Below, piece by piece: positions 25,849 through 54,661 of a DNA stretch of 64,000 bases. Origin of the DNA: Yuukianura sp. NJ FZ-2021 (lineage: Eukaryota). Every line of letters starts with the position of its first letter. Positions within the stretch are counted from its first letter, which is position 1. Below the pieces are notes generated by a model, which saw only the letters and a program-made list of their open reading frames with translations, was not told the DNA's origin and ran no database searches. The position numbers and the translations under genes are program-made. Location of the stretch: NCBI GenBank assembly GCA_046563655.1, contig CM102286.1, positions 1,488,001-1,552,000 on the forward strand, written 5' to 3'.

Positions 25849-28483
25849 ATGTCATCTCGACCATCGACGTCGAGCTCCAGTTCGAAACACCACAGGAGCA
25901 GCAGTAGCAAAAAGCCAAATGGGACATCCAGGCCCGCTACAAACTCGAATGGCGTACGCTCACCGACGAGTGATGGGGGGACTTCCCTTAAGGTAAACCT
26001 TTGAAAAAGTTCTGTTATGTTTAATATTACTTCAGTAGCGGCTGAGTTGCAGTTTCATTCTACAGTCTGAGGTGGTAGTGGCAATGGCTTGGCTGAGTTG
26101 CAGTCCGAGGTGGAAGTGGTAGTGGCGGTGGTGGTGGGTAGTGAAATTAGGGAATAATTTTACCAGTGATGTTTTATTCAATTACCGAGCGGAGCGAGGC
26201 CAAATAAGTTAGGTTGCGTTTACCTAAAATCCGAAATACCGGCCGAAAGTAAAATTATTCTGTAAGCTAGACGTAATCAGTATTACGAACGTTAAAAAAA
26301 CCTAACAACGCGCCTTTGGCGCGCGAAAATGTAATAATATTTATAGATATATATACCTATAACTAATATACTACTATAAAAATAATTCCGCCACTGCCAC
26401 TACCACTACCACCTCGGAGGACTGTTGAATGAAACTGCATGCAACTCAGCTTCAGCAGCACTTTACTGGCTGACCGCGTTATATTGTTAAACACTGCTTA
26501 ATAATAATTAAGCAGTGCTCTAAGTGTGATTTTTTTTATTGCACTATAACTTTATTAAACTAATGTCGATTTGAAAAAAAATATTTTACAGGCTACGACA
26601 TTACGATTCTTACATGCTCCAGGCTCACACCCTAATAAGGATATAGTCTGCGGTAATTCTAAAACCGAGAAGGAATTAACGTTGAAACTGGCCACTTCGC
26701 CTAATGACACCGTGATTGAGGAACAGGCAACGAACGGCGTCATTACGTTAGTCAGATTCCGAAATCTTTCAAACCCTCCTCCAGCACTGCCACTGCCGAT
26801 GTATGCTCACGTGGCCACGCTTCACGTGAGCTGCGTATTTCCAATACGCTGGATGTTCTCACACTTCAGCGGCATGCCGGAATTAAGAAATGTCGCCTTC
26901 GGAACTGGATGCTTTGCTGAAGACAAGTACGTCTTCAAGGACCAAACCATGCTGAAATTGGAAGCCAGCAGTTCGGTGAAAGATTTGAACATCCGAGTGG
27001 ATGTTTACAAGCATGCGAACTGTTTAGATCCAATTGTGAAACATAGAATTACTACGATCTTCACGTCCGCAGCGACTTGCTGTAAGGAGTTGACTTCCGT
27101 GGACTTCACAATTCCAATGAATACTGAGGAAGCGCTAGCAGAATTCCGCACCAAGCTATCGCAATTCCAAAAGATTGGACTCGAAAGTCGAGATTTGGAC
27201 AGGCATTATATGACGTTCAAAGCGTCTGTCAATCATCACGGACCTGCGCCTTCCTCCAGCAAACGACCTTCTACTTCTAGTGATGAAGGGGTAAGCAAAT
27301 ATTTTTAACCAAATTGAATTGGCCGAGTTTATTTTTTGTTTTAACTGTATTTTTGCACATTTAGGGCATTACTAATGCGGCATTAGGCACTATTTATTCC
27401 CATTTTGCCAATACCAATGCTTCAGTTCTGCTATATTTCAGTAACTAAAACTAAGATTGACTGAATATTTTTTTCAAGGTGGGTCACAAGAAGGCCAAAG
27501 AGGACGACTGTGAAGTTATTTACGTTTCCGATGATGAGCCAGAAGACTTAGAACTCACTCAACAAATTCCTGCTTCAGTTATTTCTCCACCGCCGCCGCC
27601 TCTACAAGCACAAAATGTAGAACAACCCCCGCCTAAAACACAACAAGCAGATCCGCCCCCGTCTACACGACAACTGGCAAATCAACAAACACACGTAAAT
27701 CCGCCACCACAACTCCCAAATCGACCACTACAACATCCAAACCCAACACCGCCGGCTGTACGACAACAGAATGTCGATCCACCCCCCGCTATACGACAAC
27801 AAAATGTCGATCCACCCCCCGCTATACGACAACAAAATGTCGATCCACCCCCCGCTATACGACAACAGAAGGTAGATCCACCCCCGGCAGTTCGACAACA
27901 AAGTGCAGTTGTACCCCCGCCTACTGTACGACCACATTATGCAGGAGACCCACCGGCTGTTCCACCACCACGACGACATACTGAAGATCCACCGCCGTCA
28001 GTTCCACCACCACGACGACATTCAGGGTCTACGCCCTCTTCCCATCAGGTTATCCAACAGAATATCAAACCTATTATGCCGAATACAGCAAAAACTAAGT
28101 TTATCGTTGGTGGACCAATCGTGGAGCAGAGTGGCGTAGACATTACTGTTCCAGTCCGTCCGATGCTGGATCCACGAACACTCCCGCGGGAAGAAAGACG
28201 CACCCGTCAACGTTCTAGTCGGGTTCCGTCTGGTACACCCCGTAGTCCACTCCCTATCTCTATCCCCCAGAGGGAACCGTCGGTCAGGATCAGCAATAGG
28301 GCATGTCCAGCGTCTGGTGGGTCATATTTAAATATTACAATTTATATATTATTGATATTTTAACTCAAACTGTCAAAACTGAATGGCTCGTCATGTTTTT
28401 TAGCAAAGGCAAGGATGGCGCAGGCGATGGCCGCCAAAAGGGAACGTGCTAGTAGCCCGTCACTTTTGGGCGAAAATGATTGA
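25849..28483 (+). CDS. Uncharacterized 586-aa protein: Ser-rich N-terminus, ~230-aa globular (possibly LRR-like) domain, Pro/Gln-rich repeat region; exons 25849-25992, 26592-27290, 27479-28316, 28404-28483
   Basis: Four exons with canonical sites join in frame (1761 nt); probable 5' UTR exon at ~25460-25650. No family recognised. Confidence 0.75.
26040..26450. mobile_element. Intronic non-autonomous inverted-repeat element (MITE/foldback-like)
   Basis: gctgagttgcagtttcattctacagtc..gaggtggtagtggc (from 26041) is inverted relative to ccgccactgccactaccactaccacctcgg..actgttgaatgaaactgcatgcaactcagc (26388-26450); interior has gagcggagcgagg and gcgcctttggcgcgc motifs. Confidence 0.6.
27746..27905 (+). 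repeat. Coding 33-bp tandem repeat (PPPA[IV]RQQ[NK]VD, about 5 units)
   Basis: ccaccccccgctatacgacaacaaaatgtcgat repeated head to tail. Confidence 0.95.
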
Positions 28484-29537: not shown

Positions 29538-32118
29538 ATGAATCTAGGACTAATAGTTCTCATTTTTTGTGTCACAGGTTCGATTACATTTGCAACAACT
29601 TTGTCCAATCAGCACTACGAAGTTAATCAGCGGAAGTCTAAGGAATTTGACTTTTTAGGATGGCTTTTTGGCGGAAGAAGTCAAAACAGCACAAATTCTA
29701 CTGCTCTTGCTCCTGGAAGCGCCGCTGAAGGTTCACTTCAACTTCAGCCCAGTTCAAACACGACGAAAAATGAAACCAAAACGAATGTTGACAAAATCAG
29801 CGTCATTTTTAGCACTGGTGGTGCCACTAGGAACCGAACAAGAAAATCAGTCAGCGATTCTAGACAAGGAAAGCAAATGTTTCCAGGTCCGTACTTTCAA
29901 TATCCAATTCTCCCGCCTTATTATGCTTGGACTCTTCATCCTAACTTTATGGCAAACTTAAACCCGATTTCAAAGCGAATTCAAAAGCAGAAGGCGCCCA
30001 TTTATAACATTTATACAGATGAGGACGACCAGGGAATATTTGAACCTGAACGTTATCCAGACGATATCGAAAAGCCAAATAAATTTGAGGATCCGATGGA
30101 CGAAAATTTTCCGGCTGACGAAGACTCCGATGAACTTGAACATGGCAGGATCGTCGCAGTTAACTTGGGCAAAGGTGAGTACTTACTTAAACAATATTTA
30201 TAAAAACTTTTGTATGAAAAGTTATTTTCGTAACTTTTTTAGATCATACTGCCCGACGTGGTACTGGCGCCAGTAATGAAGATTTTGACACCAGTCGAGA
30301 GCAACTGTCATTCGAAGACTACGAATCCAAAGAAAATGACGTACAAGGCAGGAAGTCCACAAAGCGCAAACGCGATTTGTCCAAAACCCATGTCCAGCAC
30401 GACTTCACTGGAAACTGCCCATCTCCAGGAGGATGTCACTTTGACCAACGAAGGCCACTTTTGCGCGGGAAATTTGAACCTTCCCGGAATGACCAATCAC
30501 AGCACGAAGCAACTCACCATTTACCTTCAAAGTTAAACAATAATCAAACTACTGCCGTACCAGAGACACAGCTGAGTGAATCTCCTGCACCGTTGGCCAA
30601 CTCCTGGTCAACTACAGAATTTCCTATACTTATCGCTAGTATGGTTTCCCGACTGAATGGAACTGGTGACATGACAGGCACAACCAATGTCCCAGTTGGC
30701 AGTTCAAATGAAAATGACATTGGGCAACATCAAACCACCACCGAAATTAATGTGTCCAGCTCAGTTGCTTCTTCGTTTACACCGTCGCAGTCTCCCGATT
30801 CTACCGAATCTAGTATCAACTCCACCGAATCCATTATCAATTCTACCGAATCCAGTATCAACTCTACCGAATCCAGTATCAACTCTACCGCATCCAGTAT
30901 CAATTCTACCGAATCCAGTGTTAACACTACCGTGAATTGTCAAAACTCAACGACTTCCGCCCATGACGCAAATATCACCGAAGCGGCTACTCCTGAAGCT
31001 GCTCGTCCCACGATCAGCGCCGTCCTTGATTGTCGTAAGTTAATACAGCTCAAGTTTGAGTTATCACAGAGGTGCTGATTAATTAAGTTCGCTAACTAAT
31101 TCTTTTGGTAAATGTTCTAGAATGTGGAGTTCAAACTGTGGCGGGAGAGAGGGTGGGTTCAGCCTTTATCCGAGTAATGACAAGTCCATGGATCGTAGAA
31201 GTCATGTCAAAGAGTAAACACCTTTGTGCAGGATCACTGATCAACGACCGATACATTCTGACAGTCGCCAGTTGTATTGACATGTTCGAGAAAAAGAGTT
31301 TGAGGATAATCACAGGCCTGCAGTCTCGCCGTCCCCAAGTGTTTACTGTTACGAAAGTCTCTATTCACCCCAAATACGATCCATCAACGTTCGAGAACAA
31401 CATTGCTCTGCTCAGACTCTCCGAATCCAAGAAATCTACGAGACATATCCGTCCCATTTGTCTACCACTACAAGAACTAGGTTATGCCAGACATACTGCT
31501 CATCTGGTGACATGGCTCCAAGCCAAGTCACATGCCCATGGCCATCACAATGAAGTTAAGTTCAACGCAAGGCGACATCTACAACTAATACAAACGGAAG
31601 TGGAACTACTCAACTCCACGACATGCCAAACCATGGTCACTGATGCTGTCGACGGAGCAATAATTTCCAATGGAACTTTGTGTACACATCCACCACCTCA
31701 GAAGAAATGCGGTGTAAAATTTTCAAAAACTTTACTAAAAAAATTTTCTCTTTCGAAAACGTAACCTAAACGTTATTAAATCAATTTACCCTAGGGCGAC
31801 ATTGGCGGACTACTGCAAGCATATGCAACCAGATTTTCTTATGAACAAATCGGCGTCGTCAGCATGACCGTGGGATGCAGAACGAACAGCCTTCCTGGAA
31901 TCTATACCGGTAAATTTAAAATTTCGAAAATTTCATGTCCACGCAAAAGTTCTCTCGAAAACTGCGAAAATTCAAAATGTTTTTCAAAATTATTCTCATA
32001 TTTTTCTTTGTATGTCCTATTAGATATCAGACACTACCTACGTTGGATTCTGTTTCAAACCCAAGATGCTCATTATTGTCGCGAACCAAATGGAGGCAGT
32101 TTTTCAGAAAATCACTAA
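29538..32118 (+). CDS. Secreted non-catalytic trypsin-family serine-protease homolog with long acidic and Ser/Thr-rich pro-region, 743 aa; exons 29538-30174, 30243-31034, 31121-31713, 31795-31909, 32024-32118
   Basis: Signal peptide MNLGLIVLIFCVTGSITFA; S1 motifs PWIV, HLCAGSLINDRYILTVASC, ENNIALLRL, IRPICLP, GDIGG, QIGVVS, PGIYTDIRHYLRWI. His, Asp and Ser of the triad are all replaced. Confidence 0.9.
30799..30925 (+). repeat. Coding 21-bp tandem repeat (STESSIN, about 5-6 units) creating repeated N-S-T sequons
   Basis: tctaccgaatccagtatcaac repeated with few substitutions. Confidence 0.95.
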
Positions 32119-37113: not shown

Positions 37114-37307
37114 AAAGTATTGTTTGAAAACTGTTATTTCTTTGATTTAGCGAGTTGTAAATTGGATTAAGTTAAGCTAAGCTAAGTGCCAAAGCAGTAT
37201 GACGCAGTCGCAGTTGATACTGGACACAAGATGTTTCACACACAAGACGTTTCTTAGAGGTCACGAGTTTTTACTAAAAATAGTTGCTTTCAAAATTTTG
37301 CGATAGT

Positions 37308-37617
37308 AATTTCCCAAGAGCAAATACCAACACGGACCAAGGTGTATACTAATTAAAATTTTAATTATAACGACATTTTTATGAAAACTTTTTTTTTGTT
37401 AAATTTTGTGTATTAAAAGACTCCTTATCCTACAAGTATCAACAGTCTCACGGTCTGATGTGAGTCGTAACCCTCTGGGAAAAATTTTTGAAAATTTTTG
37501 TGGTTTGATGACGAAAAATAGAAAACAAAATTTAAGAATGATTTTCGACTTTGGACTTATGTCAATCTATACAGTCTTAACTTAAGGTTTAAGCATAACA
37601 AAGTCATTGTTGTTTAG
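37308..37617 (+). pseudogene. Decayed duplicate of the last intron and last exon of the downstream asparagine synthetase gene
   Basis: acacggaccaag|gtg...aag|actccttatcctacaagtatcaac...cataacaaagtcattgttgtttag aligns by eye with 40018-40370; contains an in-frame TGA and deletions. Confidence 0.85.
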
Positions 37618-37931
37618 AAACTTGAAACCGCGGTCCCAAACCTTTGCTATGCTTTTTAAAAAAATAAAAATCCCAGAAAAAAACTTTCCTTCATGTTTTC
37701 AGAAAGTTTGTTTTTCAGAAATCTTTATCTGTAAATCTTGACAAAAAAAATCAAAGTTGAAATGTTGCAGAGGCTTGTGGTTCTGTTCTCAGTGAAAAAA
37801 AAATTCTCAAGAAACGAATCACCAGATCATTTCAAAAGAGCTTGCTAGAAATTGCGAGTTTTAGTTGCGCACAGTCCCATCAACATCAAACTTTTATAAA
37901 CTGCTGTTGAAAAATTGAGGAGTTAGAAAAA

Positions 37932-40370
37932 ATGTGCGGAATTTGTGGATGGATTTCGTTTTTGAAAAGCGGGGAAGATGGGGAAGAGCAATGTGTTCAA
38001 GAATCTTTGGAAAATCGTTTAAACATTGCCAATTCCTTAGTTCAAACGCTTATCCCAAGAGGGCCGGATGACCAAGGCATTTGGAATTCTGAAGACGAAT
38101 GTTGTATTTTTGGACACACGAGACTCATCGTTGTAGATCCAGAAGGTAAACAAGAAAAAATCAGAAAATTTTGAAAAAATTTTTGAGTAGCAAGGTTTTT
38201 TTTTTAAATTCACTGATTTGCTCGGTATTGTGCAGGAGGAAAACAGCCAATGACAGCTTGTGACAAAAATGGCGTCTCTTATACGATTACTTACAACGGA
38301 GAGTTGTACAACACAAATGAGCTCAGAAATGAACTCATCAGCAAAGGTCAATAGTTCAAACCAAATTTCATCAACATTACATTATTTCAAAAACTAAAAT
38401 ACGTTACAAAAATTTTCATACCTTTGAAGGTCATTCTTTCAAGTCGTATTCGGACACGGAAGTACTTTTGCATGCTTACATGGTACAAAAACTCATCAGA
38501 CTTTTTTAAACTACTTTTCAAACAATTTTTTAAAAAGCCATTTCTTCAAATTTTGAATGAAAAAAATGAAATTTTTTGCATTTTAGGAGTGGAACTCAAA
38601 ATGTTTGGCCCGCTTGGAAGGAATTTTTGCTTTTGGAATTTGGTCCAAAGGTCAACTGTTTTTTGCAAGAGATCGCCTAGGGGTCAAGCCCTTCTTCTAC
38701 TCAGTTTTCCCGCAAAATTTCATTTTTGCAAGTGAAATGAAGGCTCTTCTGGAACATCCACTCGTGTCACGTGACGTTCCGTTTGATGCTCTCGCAACAC
38801 TTTTTGCCGTTGGATATATTCGACCTGTTGGATTCGTTCCGTTCAAAGACATCCAAGAACTACTGCCAGGATTTGCTGGAACGGTAAGTTGAATTTCAAA
38901 ATTTTAGAAAAATTGTTGTTTTAAAGTTAACTTTTTTGTAAGTTTTCTGAAAATGGACTTGAACTTTGGAAGTACTGGGACCTCGATCCGTCTTTTACGC
39001 AAGATTCTTTGGAAGAAGCGAGTTCAAAAATTCATTCCCTTCTGAAAAATGCTACTTCCAGACAAACATTTGCTGATGTTCCATTTGGAACACTTTTGAG
39101 TGGAGGGATTGACAGTACTGCGTTGATGCATTTCGTGTACGAAAAGTTTTTAACCGACGGCGGGAAACCGAAACTTCAAACATTCAGTCTGGAATTGCCT
39201 GAGTACAACAAATATTTTCAGGTCGGACTATTTTGAAACTGAAATTTTTTGAAATCGTTCGAAAATTCGTTGTAAGTTTTCAATATTTTAGCCAACGGTC
39301 GGTCGAGCTGATAATGACGAAGATTTTATCCGACTGTGCTGTTTCAAATACGAAATCAACCATACTTGGGTGGCTGAAACAAGTGAAGAAATTGTTTCTG
39401 CCGTGGAGGGAGCAACTATGGCCAAAGACTATCCAATTATGGGTGACCTTGACCTGACCTTGTTTCTACTTTTCAAAAAAGTGAAACCTACAGTAACCGT
39501 GCTACTATCGGGAGAAGGAGCTGACGAAATATTTGGAGGCTACAAGCACATGTACTTCGATAACTGCTATCCTGGCATTCCGGTGGCTTCAACTGCAGTC
39601 AGTTATGGGTCACTTCTGAAAGATGAGGTCAAAGGTCAACTGGATCTCGAAGCAAAAGTTATCGAACTGTATCAGAATGTTGTCAAGGGCTATGTACCGC
39701 CTTCTGAAGGCAGTCCAGAAGAAGTGGAATTTCAAAGACGAACGTACTTCCATATCAAATTTTGGCTTCCGTTTATGTTAGAGAGAAAGGTTAGGAAAAC
39801 TATTTTTTTCCCGAAATTTTGATTGTTTTTAATTTTGGATTTTGGATCAAAATTTTGAAAAAATAGGACCTTATGAGCATGAGCTCGGGAGTAGAAGTTC
39901 GCGTACCGTTTACGGACCACACTCTTGTGCAATACGCTTTTCAAATTCCAAAGTGTTGCAAAATGCACGACGGAGTGGAAAAATATGTTTTTCGAAACAG
40001 TATGAAAAATGAGAAAAAATTCCCGGAGGAAATACGTACACGGACAAAGGTGGCGCTAAGGAAATTTTTAATTTGAAATTTTTTTAAAACTTTTTTGAAA
40101 ATTTGCGTTTTCTAATTTCAGAGTCCTTATCCCACAAGTATCAACACTCGCACGGTTCAACTGTGTGGTAACCTTCTGGGAACTATTTTTCAAAATCCAG
40201 AACAAGAACCACTTTTTCAGTGGTTTGATTACGAAAAATTGAAAATCGAACTTGAAAATGATTTTCAAAATTACACTGAAAAATTCTCCGTGACGTCACG
40301 GCTTTGGATTTATATCAATCTCTACAGTCTCAACTTTTGGTTTAAACATAACAAAGTCAATGTTGTTTAG
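37932..40370 (+). CDS. asnO: Glutamine-hydrolysing asparagine synthetase-family amidotransferase of bacterial AsnO/LtsA type, 627 aa; 8 exons (37932-38145, 38236-38346, 38430-38482, 38587-38883, 38943-39221, 39292-39789, 39867-40049, 40122-40370)
   Basis: MCGICGW (Ntn Cys), RGPD, FGHTRLIVVDPEGGKQPM, YNGELYN, SDTEV, ARDRLGVKPFFY, FASEMKALLEHP, LLSGGIDS, LSGEGADEIFGGY, LERKDLMSMSSGVEVRVPFTDH, KSPYP. Exons total 1884 nt, open frame. Confidence 0.9.
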
Positions 40371-40694
40371 CAACTAAACACAAGTTTTAAATTTAAGTTT
40401 TTGAAAAATTACTTTCCAAAATCATCCTTCCAAAAATTGAATTAAAAAAGTATGCAAAAGCATGAAGACCATGGTTACCATGGAAACATTTTTTTCAAAA
40501 AGCCAGGTTTGTTGATCTTCTTTGTTTACAAAGTTCACGGCCGTCTCCACTACCACTCTTGCGCCATTTTCAAAATTTGAATTTTCGTTACTCCTCGCTC
40601 CGGCAGTCACGCCCGTCGACCTCTCCAGGAATTTCAAAATTTTGTCCACTTTTTCAAAACTTTCTTGAAGTAACTACAACTCATCGTCGTCATA

Positions 40695-49023: not shown

Positions 49024-49964
49024 ATGAGACGATTTGCGCTATTGGTACTGATTTTAGGAGTAGTGCGAGCTAGAAATATTTTTCAGCAAGGAGTCGAAAA
49101 AGGTAAACTTTCATAATTTTGAAAAACTTCTGAAATTTTGCAAATATTTGTGAAATTTTTGGATTTCGGGCTTTAGGCTTGATTCCTATTGGTTCGCGCC
49201 CACTTGAAAGTCGAGAACGCCGTTCAGTTGATGACGATGACGATCGCGGGGCTCAAAATATTTACTACGTCAGTCGTACTCCGGTAAGTTTTAAAATTCT
49301 CTAAAAAAAATAGGAATAAATTTTTTTGACCACCAAAATTTTTCAAAATTTTTGAACTTCTTTCAAATTTCAAGGCCGTTTGGGGCACTGCTTGGTTGAC
49401 CTGTCGTCAGGCCATGAATGGTCAACTGCTCACAGTTGAAACTGAAGCCGAAGACCAATTTATCCGTGACCTTCTCATTGAAAATCACATTGGTGAAATC
49501 CAGTTTCAAAATTTTGAATTTTTACTTTTTTTTAAAGGATTATTATGAAAATAAGTTCTGTTTGGTTCTGTACAGCAAGCGTGTGGACTTCTGGAGCATT
49601 TGATGCCGACCTTGGAATTTGGCGTTGGGTTTCCACTGGAGGAGAGATTGTTTACAGCAAATGGCTGCCCAATCAGCCATCGGCATCAAACGGCGCCGCT
49701 CGAATCGTAATTCAAAATTCTTTGTTTTCAAGTGGTTGGGCCACTGTGGAAGAAGATACGGCAGGTCACTACATTTGTGAGGTCAGGTCAGGACCAGTGT
49801 CTCAACCTACCCCATCCACAACTGTAGCCACTACAATTCCAACTGAAACTCCCGCTCCAACTACTCCTCTCCCACCAGAGACTACCACCTACGTACATCA
49901 AGATCCACCACCACAATTTGAAGAAGTTCATGAAGATACTGCCACAAGTGCTCCAGAGTACTAA
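49024..49964 (+). CDS. Secreted C-type lectin-domain protein with Thr/Pro-rich tail (paralog 1), 4 exons
   Basis: Signal peptide MRRFALLVLILGVVRA; YYVSRTP|AVWGTAWLTCRQAMNGQLLTVETEAEDQFI; VWTSG; WRWVSTG; WLPNQPS; YICE. Confidence 0.88.
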
Positions 49965-53814: not shown

Positions 53815-54661
53815 TTAGGCCGCTGGAGGTAGTGCAGGTACGGGCGTTGAATCTGGGATCGGGGGTTCAGTGGTGGGTTCCGTTGTGGGTGGTGTTTCAG
53901 TGGAGGGTGTAGGTTGTTCGACCGGGGCTGACCTGACCTCACAGATATAGTGACCTGTCGTGTCCTCTCCAACAGTTGCCCACCCATTGGAAAACAAGGA
54001 ATTTTGAATTACAATTCGAGCGGTAATATCTGACGACGCCGGCTGATTGGCCAGCCAGTTGACATATCCGAGCTCTCCTCCAGTAGAAACCCAACGCCAA
54101 ATTCCAAGCTCTGGGTCGTAGGCTCCAGAAGTCCATACGCTTGCTGTAAACATGTTTTTAGAATTTGGATTACTTGTAAAACGCGAAATTTGAAATTAAA
54201 AAGCTAATTTACCAATGTGGTTTTCAATGAGAAGATCACGAACAAACTGATCTTCAGCTTTAGTTTCAATTGTGAGGAGTTGGCCGTTCATGGCTTGACG
54301 ACAGGTCAACCAAGCTGTGCCCCAGACGGACTAAAATTTGATTCAAAATTTTAGTTTTCAGTAATTTTTTTCATACTTCAAAATTTTGGAACATACTGGA
54401 GTCCGGCTGACGTAGTAAACATTTTGAGCACCGGTATCATCATTGAGGTCACGTCTTTGGCGATGATCTTTTTCCAACCGTGAACCAAGCCGAATGAAGC
54501 CTTTTAAAAAAAAATCCCGCTTAAAAAGCGTTTCCAAAAAAGTTGTTTGAAATTATTTTCAAAAGCTTACTTGGTTCTTCCGTGTTTTCAAAAATGTTTC
54601 GTCCCTGGACAAGCAGAAGTGTAGCGACGAGAACAGAAATTGTTCCGAAAATTCTCGCCAT
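53815..54661 (-). CDS. Secreted C-type lectin-domain protein with Pro/Thr/Glu tail (paralog 3), 4 exons
   Basis: MARIFGTISVLVATLLLVQG; HRQRRDL; YYVSRTP|SVWGTAWLTCRQAMNGQ; VWTSGAYDPELGIWRWVSTGG; WLANQPA; HYICEVRSAP. Confidence 0.88.

Follow-up and report, generated by a model that had tools for sequence, protein, structure and literature searches.

An intron-bearing, bacterial-type gene of the asparagine synthetase family in Yuukianura sp., probably acquired by an old horizontal transfer and also present in sciarid flies

The stretch of DNA considered here, which we call the window, comprises 64,000 nucleotides of Yuukianura sp. NJ FZ-2021 (NCBI GenBank assembly GCA_046563655.1, contig CM102286.1, positions 1,488,001 to 1,552,000 of the forward strand), and coordinates below count from its first nucleotide. 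At 37932-40370 on the plus strand it carries a gene of the asparagine synthetase family. Enumeration of the frame-compatible donor-acceptor pairs between eight open segments gave a model of eight exons encoding a protein of 627 amino acids, with the following parts.

37932..38145, plus strand: exon 1, amino acids 1-71 plus 1 nt; starts Met-Cys-Gly-Ile, scores 31 bits with TIGR01536 and keeps Cys2, Arg43-Gly-Pro-Asp46 and Arg64.
38146..38235, plus strand: intron 1, 90 nt, phase 1, GT..AG, GC 27%.
38236..38346, plus strand: exon 2, with Gly-Lys-Gln-Pro-Met and the Asn-Gly-Glu-Leu-Tyr-Asn segment of the glutaminase site; TIGR01536 30.9 bits.
38347..38429, plus strand: intron 2, 83 nt, phase 1; the site has no intron in the sciarid-like genomic fragment P0327.
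38430..38482, plus strand: exon 3, 53 nt, with the Ser-Asp-Thr-Glu motif.
38483..38586, plus strand: intron 3, 104 nt, phase 0; the site has no intron in P0327.
38587..38883, plus strand: exon 4, end of the glutaminase domain and linker; Pfam GATase_7 2.2e-16, TIGR01536 79.8 bits.
38884..38942, plus strand: intron 4, 59 nt, phase 0; position common to sciarid-like genomic fragments.
38943..39221, plus strand: exon 5, with the PP-loop Ser-Gly-Gly-Ile-Asp-Ser, the ATP pyrophosphatase motif; Pfam Asn_synthase 5.6e-11.
39222..39291, plus strand: intron 5, 70 nt, phase 0; position shared, P0317 reading through an in-frame intron there.
39292..39789, plus strand: exon 6, 166 amino acids, with the Ser-Gly-Glu-Gly-Ala-Asp-Glu-Ile-Phe-Gly-Gly-Tyr motif and catalytic Glu393; Pfam Asn_synthase 1.5e-19.
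39790..39866, plus strand: intron 6, 77 nt, phase 0; position common to 13 of 14 sciarid-like fragments, P0013 and P0002.
39867..40049, plus strand: exon 7, with the Glu-Val-Arg-Val-Pro-Phe motif, Lys523, Arg543 and Lys545; Pfam Asn_synthase 7.5e-17.
40050..40121, plus strand: intron 7, 72 nt, phase 0; a decayed copy lies in an upstream fragment.
40122..40370, plus strand: exon 8, the C-terminal 82 amino acids and the TAG stop; aligns with bacterial and Bradysia C-termini.

The ATG at 37932 is the first Met downstream of an in-frame stop, the stop codon occupies 40368-40370, and the joined coding sequence of 1884 nt (627 codons plus the stop) has no internal stop. All seven introns run from GT to AG, with a GC content of 19-27% versus 41.6% in the exons. 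Alternative acceptors exist for introns 1 and 3, and the sites chosen agree with the alignment to bacterial and Bradysia relatives. Two minus-strand open reading frames (ORFs) within the gene (38037-38381 and 39732-40055) match no Pfam family. An earlier note on this DNA had described an intact gene of 627 amino acids and eight exons among animal genes, with the same AT-rich intron style as its neighbours. The splice model and the Pfam matches of neighbouring ORFs bear out the first point, and three introns of a neighbouring calpain gene, 63-66 nt long with GC 23-26%, bear out the second. The motifs listed in that note are all found in the spliced protein, three of them spanning splice junctions.

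The protein joins a class-II glutamine amidotransferase to an asparagine-synthase PP-loop domain. Family scans were done exon by exon, and bits summed over exons are rough figures rather than proper whole-protein scores. GATase_7/GATase_6 or Asn_synthase was matched in five of the six exons scanned with Pfam, colinearly and at E 5.6e-11 to 1.5e-19, values well outside what chance would give; exons 5, 6 and 7 cover positions 2-57, 56-226 and 227-285 of the Asn_synthase profile in order. Exon 8 gave no Pfam or NCBIfam match, and exon 1 no Pfam match. In keeping with a class-II amidotransferase, in which the N-terminal nucleophile (Ntn) is a cysteine, the protein starts with Met-Cys-Gly-Ile without any extension and keeps Arg64, Gly93-Glu94, Asn97 and Asp117; in keeping with PF00733, Ser278-Gly-Gly-Ile-Asp-Ser283 and Ser391-Gly-Glu393...Tyr402 are present. 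Of the 70 columns that are at least 90% conserved across an alignment with 49 relatives, 67 are kept, and the three changes (Met to Leu, Ser to Thr and Leu to Phe) are all conservative. Cys2 is among the residues kept, as are the four glutaminase positions just named, the PP-loop from Ser278 to Ser283 and, in the synthetase domain, Glu393, Asp396, Glu397, Tyr402, Lys523, Arg543 and Lys545. They align with positions of E. coli AsnB that we take to be its glutamine-site and synthetase-site residues. Likewise, 85 of the 91 columns conserved in the bacterial sister clade (see below) are kept. With the conserved residues of both domains in place, the gene bears every sign of encoding an active two-domain amidotransferase.

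Although E. coli AsnB and human ASNS share the two-domain chemistry and the catalytic residues, the gene does not encode this canonical animal enzyme. In the NCBIfam comparison, TIGR01536, a general model for bacteria and archaea, outscores PRK09431 on all five exons matched by both (rough sums of 300.6 vs 162.6 bits). PRK09431 is the model of E. coli AsnB and, we presume, also of the type to which eukaryotic ASNS belongs. An orthologue from the sciarid fly Bradysia (P0326) scores 422.1 bits with TIGR01536, the asn_synth_AEB equivalog with a cut-off of 267.1, and 253.7 bits with PRK09431/NF006949, below the cut-off of 499; the window exon sum of about 163 bits is also below it. Among solved structures, the Bradysia orthologue scores 268 bits over its residues 1-591 with Streptomyces TsnB9 (PDB 7ylz), 121.5 with E. 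coli AsnB (1ct9) and 121 with human ASNS (6gq3). The same 7ylz is the best match of window exons 4 and 6; exon 6 also reaches E. coli AsnB weakly, and human ASNS is matched neither by exon 4 (E limit 0.01) nor by exon 6 (E limit 1). TsnB9 is a hydroxyamidotransferase by its depositors' name, presumably acting in trichostatin biosynthesis; the kinship is one of fold and family and does not speak for a common substrate. A search of the ESM Atlas with exon 6 returned generic 'asparagine synthase domain' clusters only. The gene appears to be of the bacterial TIGR01536 type rather than that of E. coli AsnB or human ASNS.

A HMMER search with exon 6 against 1.84 billion cluster representatives, a library that includes NCBI, UniRef and EukProt, gave 496 matches at E ≤0.001. 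The top three are exon-sized fragments of 43-51% identity, and the others are mostly uninterrupted proteins of about 600-615 amino acids at 24-43% identity. Names were looked up for 30 of the 150 matches listed: nine carry an organism or source name, namely six bacterial (Gemmiger, Ktedonobacter, a Bacilli metagenome-assembled genome (MAG) and Psychromicrobium), two Bradysia and one EukProt, and five of the 30 bear a JGI or MGnify label only. The best full-length relative of the spliced protein is P0006 (38.8% over 634 columns), and in a scan of prokaryote species genomes the top places among the 600 pattern matches covered go to MAGs of Clostridia, Erysipelotrichaceae, Defluviitaleaceae and Bacilli and to Brenneria rubrifaciens, at 33-36.5% full-length identity. 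A metagenome scan with a pattern from the exon-6 alignment, which proved too general, returned at least 80 loci, all with low identity to exon 6 and the best twenty at 31-39%; none of the loci listed from it is animal-like. A word-prefilter protein search with exon 6 gave one weak match (P0001) and misses the bacterial and Bradysia relatives, which is a limit of the prefilter.

In a careful maximum-likelihood tree (IQ-TREE, LG+G4, 54 rows, outgroup E. coli AsnB), the window protein groups with Bradysia and three metagenome fragments at a support of 100/100. Next come 36 bacterial rows, which are united with this animal clade at 100/100 and among themselves at 89/78. Outside lies a second bacterial clade, including a tight Bacillota group (Lysinibacillus, Paenibacillus, Trichococcus, Fredinandcohnia and Romboutsia), and beyond it come P0092 and then, on a long branch outside all other rows, E. 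coli AsnB. A quick tree with additional fragments agrees with this one. The sister subfamily, of TIGR01536 type and AsnO-like, spans Firmicutes, Chloroflexota, Actinomycetota and some Proteobacteria, at 33-39% full-length identity to the window protein. Its members resemble the animal proteins in length (about 600-615 amino acids) and share their motifs through Lys-Ser-Pro-Tyr-Pro, but differ in their uninterrupted genes, in two extra segments and in three invariant residues. Family models, structure scores and this tree thus agree with the earlier view that the protein is of bacterial type and not animal ASNS.

The same view had called the enzyme 'AsnO/LtsA-type', a label whose AsnO half is plausible and whose LtsA half is not supported. 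The sister subfamily is the one that we take to be home to B. subtilis AsnO. Presumably, '[glutamine-hydrolyzing] 3', the name under which RefSeq lists a Bradysia orthologue as '3-like', is the Swiss-Prot name of B. subtilis AsnO; the NCBI pipeline therefore probably took AsnO as the best reviewed match, which is a lead only. Together with the likeness in motifs, this name makes membership of an AsnO-like subfamily plausible. The Bacillota clade with Lysinibacillus, Paenibacillus, Trichococcus and Romboutsia is, we assume, of AsnB/LtsA type, and it excludes the window protein. LtsA of Corynebacterium shares 56% identity with B. subtilis AsnB, whereas AsnO and AsnH reach no more than 31% and 23%, respectively, and deletion of asnO left the muropeptides unchanged (PMC5485061). 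The label therefore merges two subfamilies, since LtsA belongs with B. subtilis AsnB by these figures, and the window gene appears to go with the non-LtsA one. The likeness to these two peptidoglycan meso-diaminopimelate amidotransferases extends to the broad family only, their peptidoglycan substrate being one that animals do not have.

Among animals, a search with a profile built on exon-6 fragments led to a partial protein of Bradysia odoriphaga (KAG4067098.1) labelled 'hypothetical protein', whose 90% cluster includes XP_037030569.1 of Bradysia coprophila, a protein of 628 amino acids with the RefSeq name 'asparagine synthetase [glutamine-hydrolyzing] 3-like'. These two species are the only named animals with the gene among the matches examined. 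The window protein and XP_037030569.1 are 46.9% identical (288 of 614 columns) and have the same domain order and catalytic residues, the window protein carrying a 9-residue N-terminal insertion. Both depart from the bacterial sequences at three sites that are invariant in 34-36 of 36 relatives (Trp to His404, Trp to Val416 and Arg to Leu486), and a Phe-Pro-Trp segment and one C-terminal segment of the bacterial subfamily are missing from the animal proteins.

Intron sites in relatives were read from the exon-sized ORFs that prokaryotic gene callers make on eukaryotic contigs. Thirteen of the 14 sciarid-like fragments covering exon 6 leave the match to the Bradysia protein at residue 486, corresponding to window residue 484, and continue beyond it with Val, that is with a GT donor, as does the window ORF; P0013 does likewise, and P0002 nearly so. 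The start of exon 6 (residues 318-320) is the onset of the match in four fragments, and P0317 begins at the start of exon 5 and crosses the exon 5/6 junction by way of an in-frame intron. P0327 stops at the exon 4/5 junction and is continuous across the sites of window introns 2 and 3, which are therefore not shared, whereas introns 4, 5 and 6 are. Identical positions of three introns at only 47% protein identity indicate that these introns predate the divergence of the copies, and the presence of an intron-bearing gene in sciarid fungus gnats as well traces all animal copies to one acquisition. In theory, the window lineage and the sciarid flies, the latter being dipterans, could each have acquired the gene from similar bacteria, given the patchy distribution and the life of both groups among soil bacteria. 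However, the animal sequences group at 100/100, with a stem 0.42 long, and have three intron positions and three substitutions at otherwise invariant sites in common, which makes separate acquisitions very improbable.

The gene also looks at home in its surroundings. By Pfam matches of neighbouring ORFs it is flanked by calpain upstream and an M16 peptidase downstream, and further neighbours match acid sphingomyelinase, rhomboid, trypsin, Erv1/Alr and enoyl-CoA hydratase. For the exon of the last of these, the best matches that carry names are from springtails (Orchesella 60%, Folsomia 58%), other arthropods and fishes. A quick tree of this single gene puts the exon together with both springtails in a clade of 15 rows (Shimodaira-Hasegawa-like approximate likelihood ratio test, SH-aLRT, 91), which is no more than a hint of a springtail-like soil hexapod as host. 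The coding GC of the gene is 0.416 and its GC at third codon positions (GC3) 0.392, and twelve neighbouring exons span 0.37-0.47 and 0.25-0.50, respectively. Scans of the window for Rfam families and tRNAs gave no match. About 300 nt upstream of the gene lies one further feature derived from it.

37290..37617, plus strand: decayed partial duplicate of the 3' end of the gene, comprising the end of exon 7, intron 7, exon 8 and the stop.

The duplicate has deletions of 19 nt and 33 nt and an in-frame stop, and retains the stop codon and the first bases of the flank. When 37230-37650 is aligned with 39960-40400, mean column identity is 78% at the DNA level, and 48% at the protein level. The fragment, which includes a copy of intron 7, is a DNA-level duplication that postdates this intron.

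Sequencing runs were compared at the level of DNA contigs. In run X4, from another study and with differences of 1-5%, the exon 6/intron 6 junction and the intron 7/exon 8/flank region are covered by records 9 and 10. In soil metagenome run X6, contigs of 151 nt match exon 1 and, in record 18, intron 1/exon 2/intron 2 without difference. Six differences from the runs are listed for the exons of the window gene; four are synonymous, as expected under constraint. In run X1, contigs at a depth of about 48-55 (main depth about 200-400) align to exons 5-7, at 39184-40051, with the introns skipped, and link 40051 back to 37347. They point to a second copy or haplotype that has diverged and is similar at its 3' end to the upstream fragment. 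Contamination by bacterial DNA or a chimeric assembly could draw on the bacterial affinity of the protein and nothing more. It is excluded because the gene has seven host-style spliceosomal introns and host-like GC and GC3, is flanked on one sequence by animal genes on either side and has a decayed duplicate upstream, and because contigs in runs of other studies span its junctions. Linkage to host genes, spliceosomal introns and independent DNA data are thus all found here, as in a domesticated gene.

Taken together, we consider it likely that the locus holds a functional nuclear gene of an animal, probably a soil arthropod, derived from a bacterial TIGR01536-type (AsnO-like) glutamine-dependent asparagine synthetase by an old horizontal transfer, and that the gene has since gained introns and host base composition. 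The old transfer from bacteria proposed in the earlier note thus stands as the best reading of family type, tree, introns and residence. Its placing of the gene in this one animal was incomplete, since an annotated sciarid orthologue with shared intron positions exists. The main alternative for the origin is an ancient, vertically inherited eukaryotic paralogue that was lost in nearly all animals, without any transfer. The animal clade is indeed sister to, and not nested in, the sampled bacterial subfamily; shared introns speak of a long eukaryotic history; and one EukProt entry (P0107) belongs to the subfamily. However, the animal-like entries among the matches listed from the library of 1.84 billion representatives amount to five exon-sized fragments, all else being uninterrupted proteins of about 600 amino acids. 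In addition, the two Bradysia species are the only animals named, the wider family surrounding the clade is bacterial, and P0107 (612 amino acids) groups with Ktedonobacter (100/99), apart from the animal clade. Vertical descent is on balance improbable. P0107 itself reflects either contamination of the EukProt data set or a separate transfer.

Several points weigh against the transfer that we favour. With the animal clade in a sister position, no one donor lineage stands out. The rows of the tree were chosen by likeness to the query, eukaryotic ASNS and ASNSD1 are not among them, and the sole outgroup, E. coli AsnB, is long-branched. Names were sampled for only 30 of the 150 matches listed, which include P0107, an entry of a collection of eukaryote proteomes.

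The gene may be a further one shared between soil microarthropods and sciarid flies. Terpene synthases occur in Sciaridae, springtails and mites, and a transfer from mites to sciarids has been proposed (PMC11665903); a dae2 clade is likewise described as uniting mites, a springtail and B. coprophila (bioRxiv 10.64898/2026.03.13.711553). The patchy distribution of such foreign genes may match that of the window gene, although the gene families are different. It is possible, though less likely than not, that the gene entered one arthropod lineage (e.g. springtails or mites) from bacteria, gained introns 4-6 and later passed as eukaryotic DNA to the sciarid ancestor, or the reverse, in which case the three shared replacements would be the sign of a changed choice of acceptor, new to arthropods. 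If so, the route would be the same as that in the published proposals for sciarid terpene synthases. Introns at shared positions at 47% protein identity provide a rare internal clock, in that either the introns are older than the split or one arthropod passed the gene to another in the form of eukaryotic DNA, and they make the proposed arthropod-to-arthropod route directly testable with one more gene family.

That soil arthropods have domesticated bacterial genes is already known. The present case would add an asparagine-synthetase-family amidotransferase, for whose sciarid orthologue RefSeq gives a routine enzyme name. Full-text literature searches, which did not cover the supplementary tables of large insect horizontal gene transfer surveys (these may list it), found no report of an asparagine-synthetase-family gene acquired horizontally by an animal. 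Within the same scope, survey supplements again excepted, nothing was found that cites the Bradysia accession or treats the sciarid gene as foreign. No such gene is mentioned in a psyllid paper or in a preprint on dipteran germline-restricted chromosomes, and the word 'asparagine' is absent from the main text of a paper on arthropod fusion genes.

The finding raises the questions of why an animal keeps a second, bacterial-type amidotransferase and whether its acceptor has changed. From what is known of the family, the N-terminal Cys, exposed once Met is removed, would hydrolyse glutamine in the Ntn domain, and the ammonia would travel via an internal tunnel to the C-terminal PP-loop domain. 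There, ATP would adenylate a carboxylate, most likely the side chain of aspartate, and ammonia would displace AMP to give the amide, asparagine. We put glutamine-dependent asparagine synthesis, with aspartate as the acceptor, as the most likely activity, at an even chance or slightly above. It is favoured because the Bradysia orthologue passes the asparagine-synthase equivalog model, because the nearest Firmicutes genes stand alone among housekeeping genes, and because asnB, asnH and asnO of B. subtilis were each able to complement asparagine-auxotrophic E. coli. The last point comes from PMC5485061, where Yoshida 1999 is cited for it.

A different acceptor for an enzyme of the same bacterial origin is possible but in our view less likely. 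Many AsnB-family enzymes amidate other carboxylates, and a small metabolite, a peptide or a defence compound could serve here. Four observations count against aspartate. The best solved relative, TsnB9, is a hydroxyamidotransferase and no asparagine synthetase. A subfamily member from Brenneria rubrifaciens (L086:13-7965) is flanked by a major facilitator superfamily (MFS) transporter, a 3-ketoacyl-ACP synthase III (KAS III), an AfsA-like hotdog protein, an old-yellow-enzyme (OYE) reductase and a short-chain dehydrogenase/reductase (SDR), a neighbourhood that looks like a cluster for a small signalling molecule or natural product. His404, Val416 and Leu486 replace bacterial invariants in both animals, so a change of substrate is possible. 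The Phe-Pro-Trp and C-terminal segments are missing. In addition, animals normally already possess ASNS. However, the whole catalytic set is kept, the Bradysia orthologue lies above the equivalog cut-off for asparagine synthase, and the nearest relatives stand alone among housekeeping genes in four Firmicutes genomes. Furthermore, no partner biosynthetic genes flank the gene in the window, and B. subtilis AsnO-type enzymes are able to supply asparagine (PMC5485061).

In one of the bacterial genomes, a Clostridia MAG, an anti-sigma-type HATPase kinase and a sigma-70 family factor (L081:6230-7406) lie about 1.3 kb downstream of the nearest clostridial homologue. This neighbourhood recalls a sporulation link that we assume for B. 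subtilis asnO.

Elsewhere in the window, the plus-strand ORF 27461-28363 is a proline-rich open frame of 300 amino acids with about four tandem units of some 11 residues (..Asp-Pro-Pro-Pro-Ala-Ile-Arg-Gln-Gln-Asn-Val..). A Ser/Thr-rich open frame at 30218-31078 on the plus strand, with repeated Ile-Asn-Ser-Thr-Glu-Ser-Ser units, precedes the ORF 31096-31764, which matches Pfam Trypsin at 7.9e-23; the frame may be the mucin-like stalk of this neighbouring serine protease. Two ORFs at 49536-49964 (plus strand) and 53815-54195 (minus strand) match no Pfam family at E ≤0.001. They lie about 4 kb apart in opposite orientation and have a long near-identical stretch in common, Thr-Ala-Ser-Val-Trp-Thr-Ser-Gly-Ala ... 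Gly-His-Tyr-Ile-Cys-Glu-Val-Arg-Ser, which is followed by Pro/Thr-rich tails.

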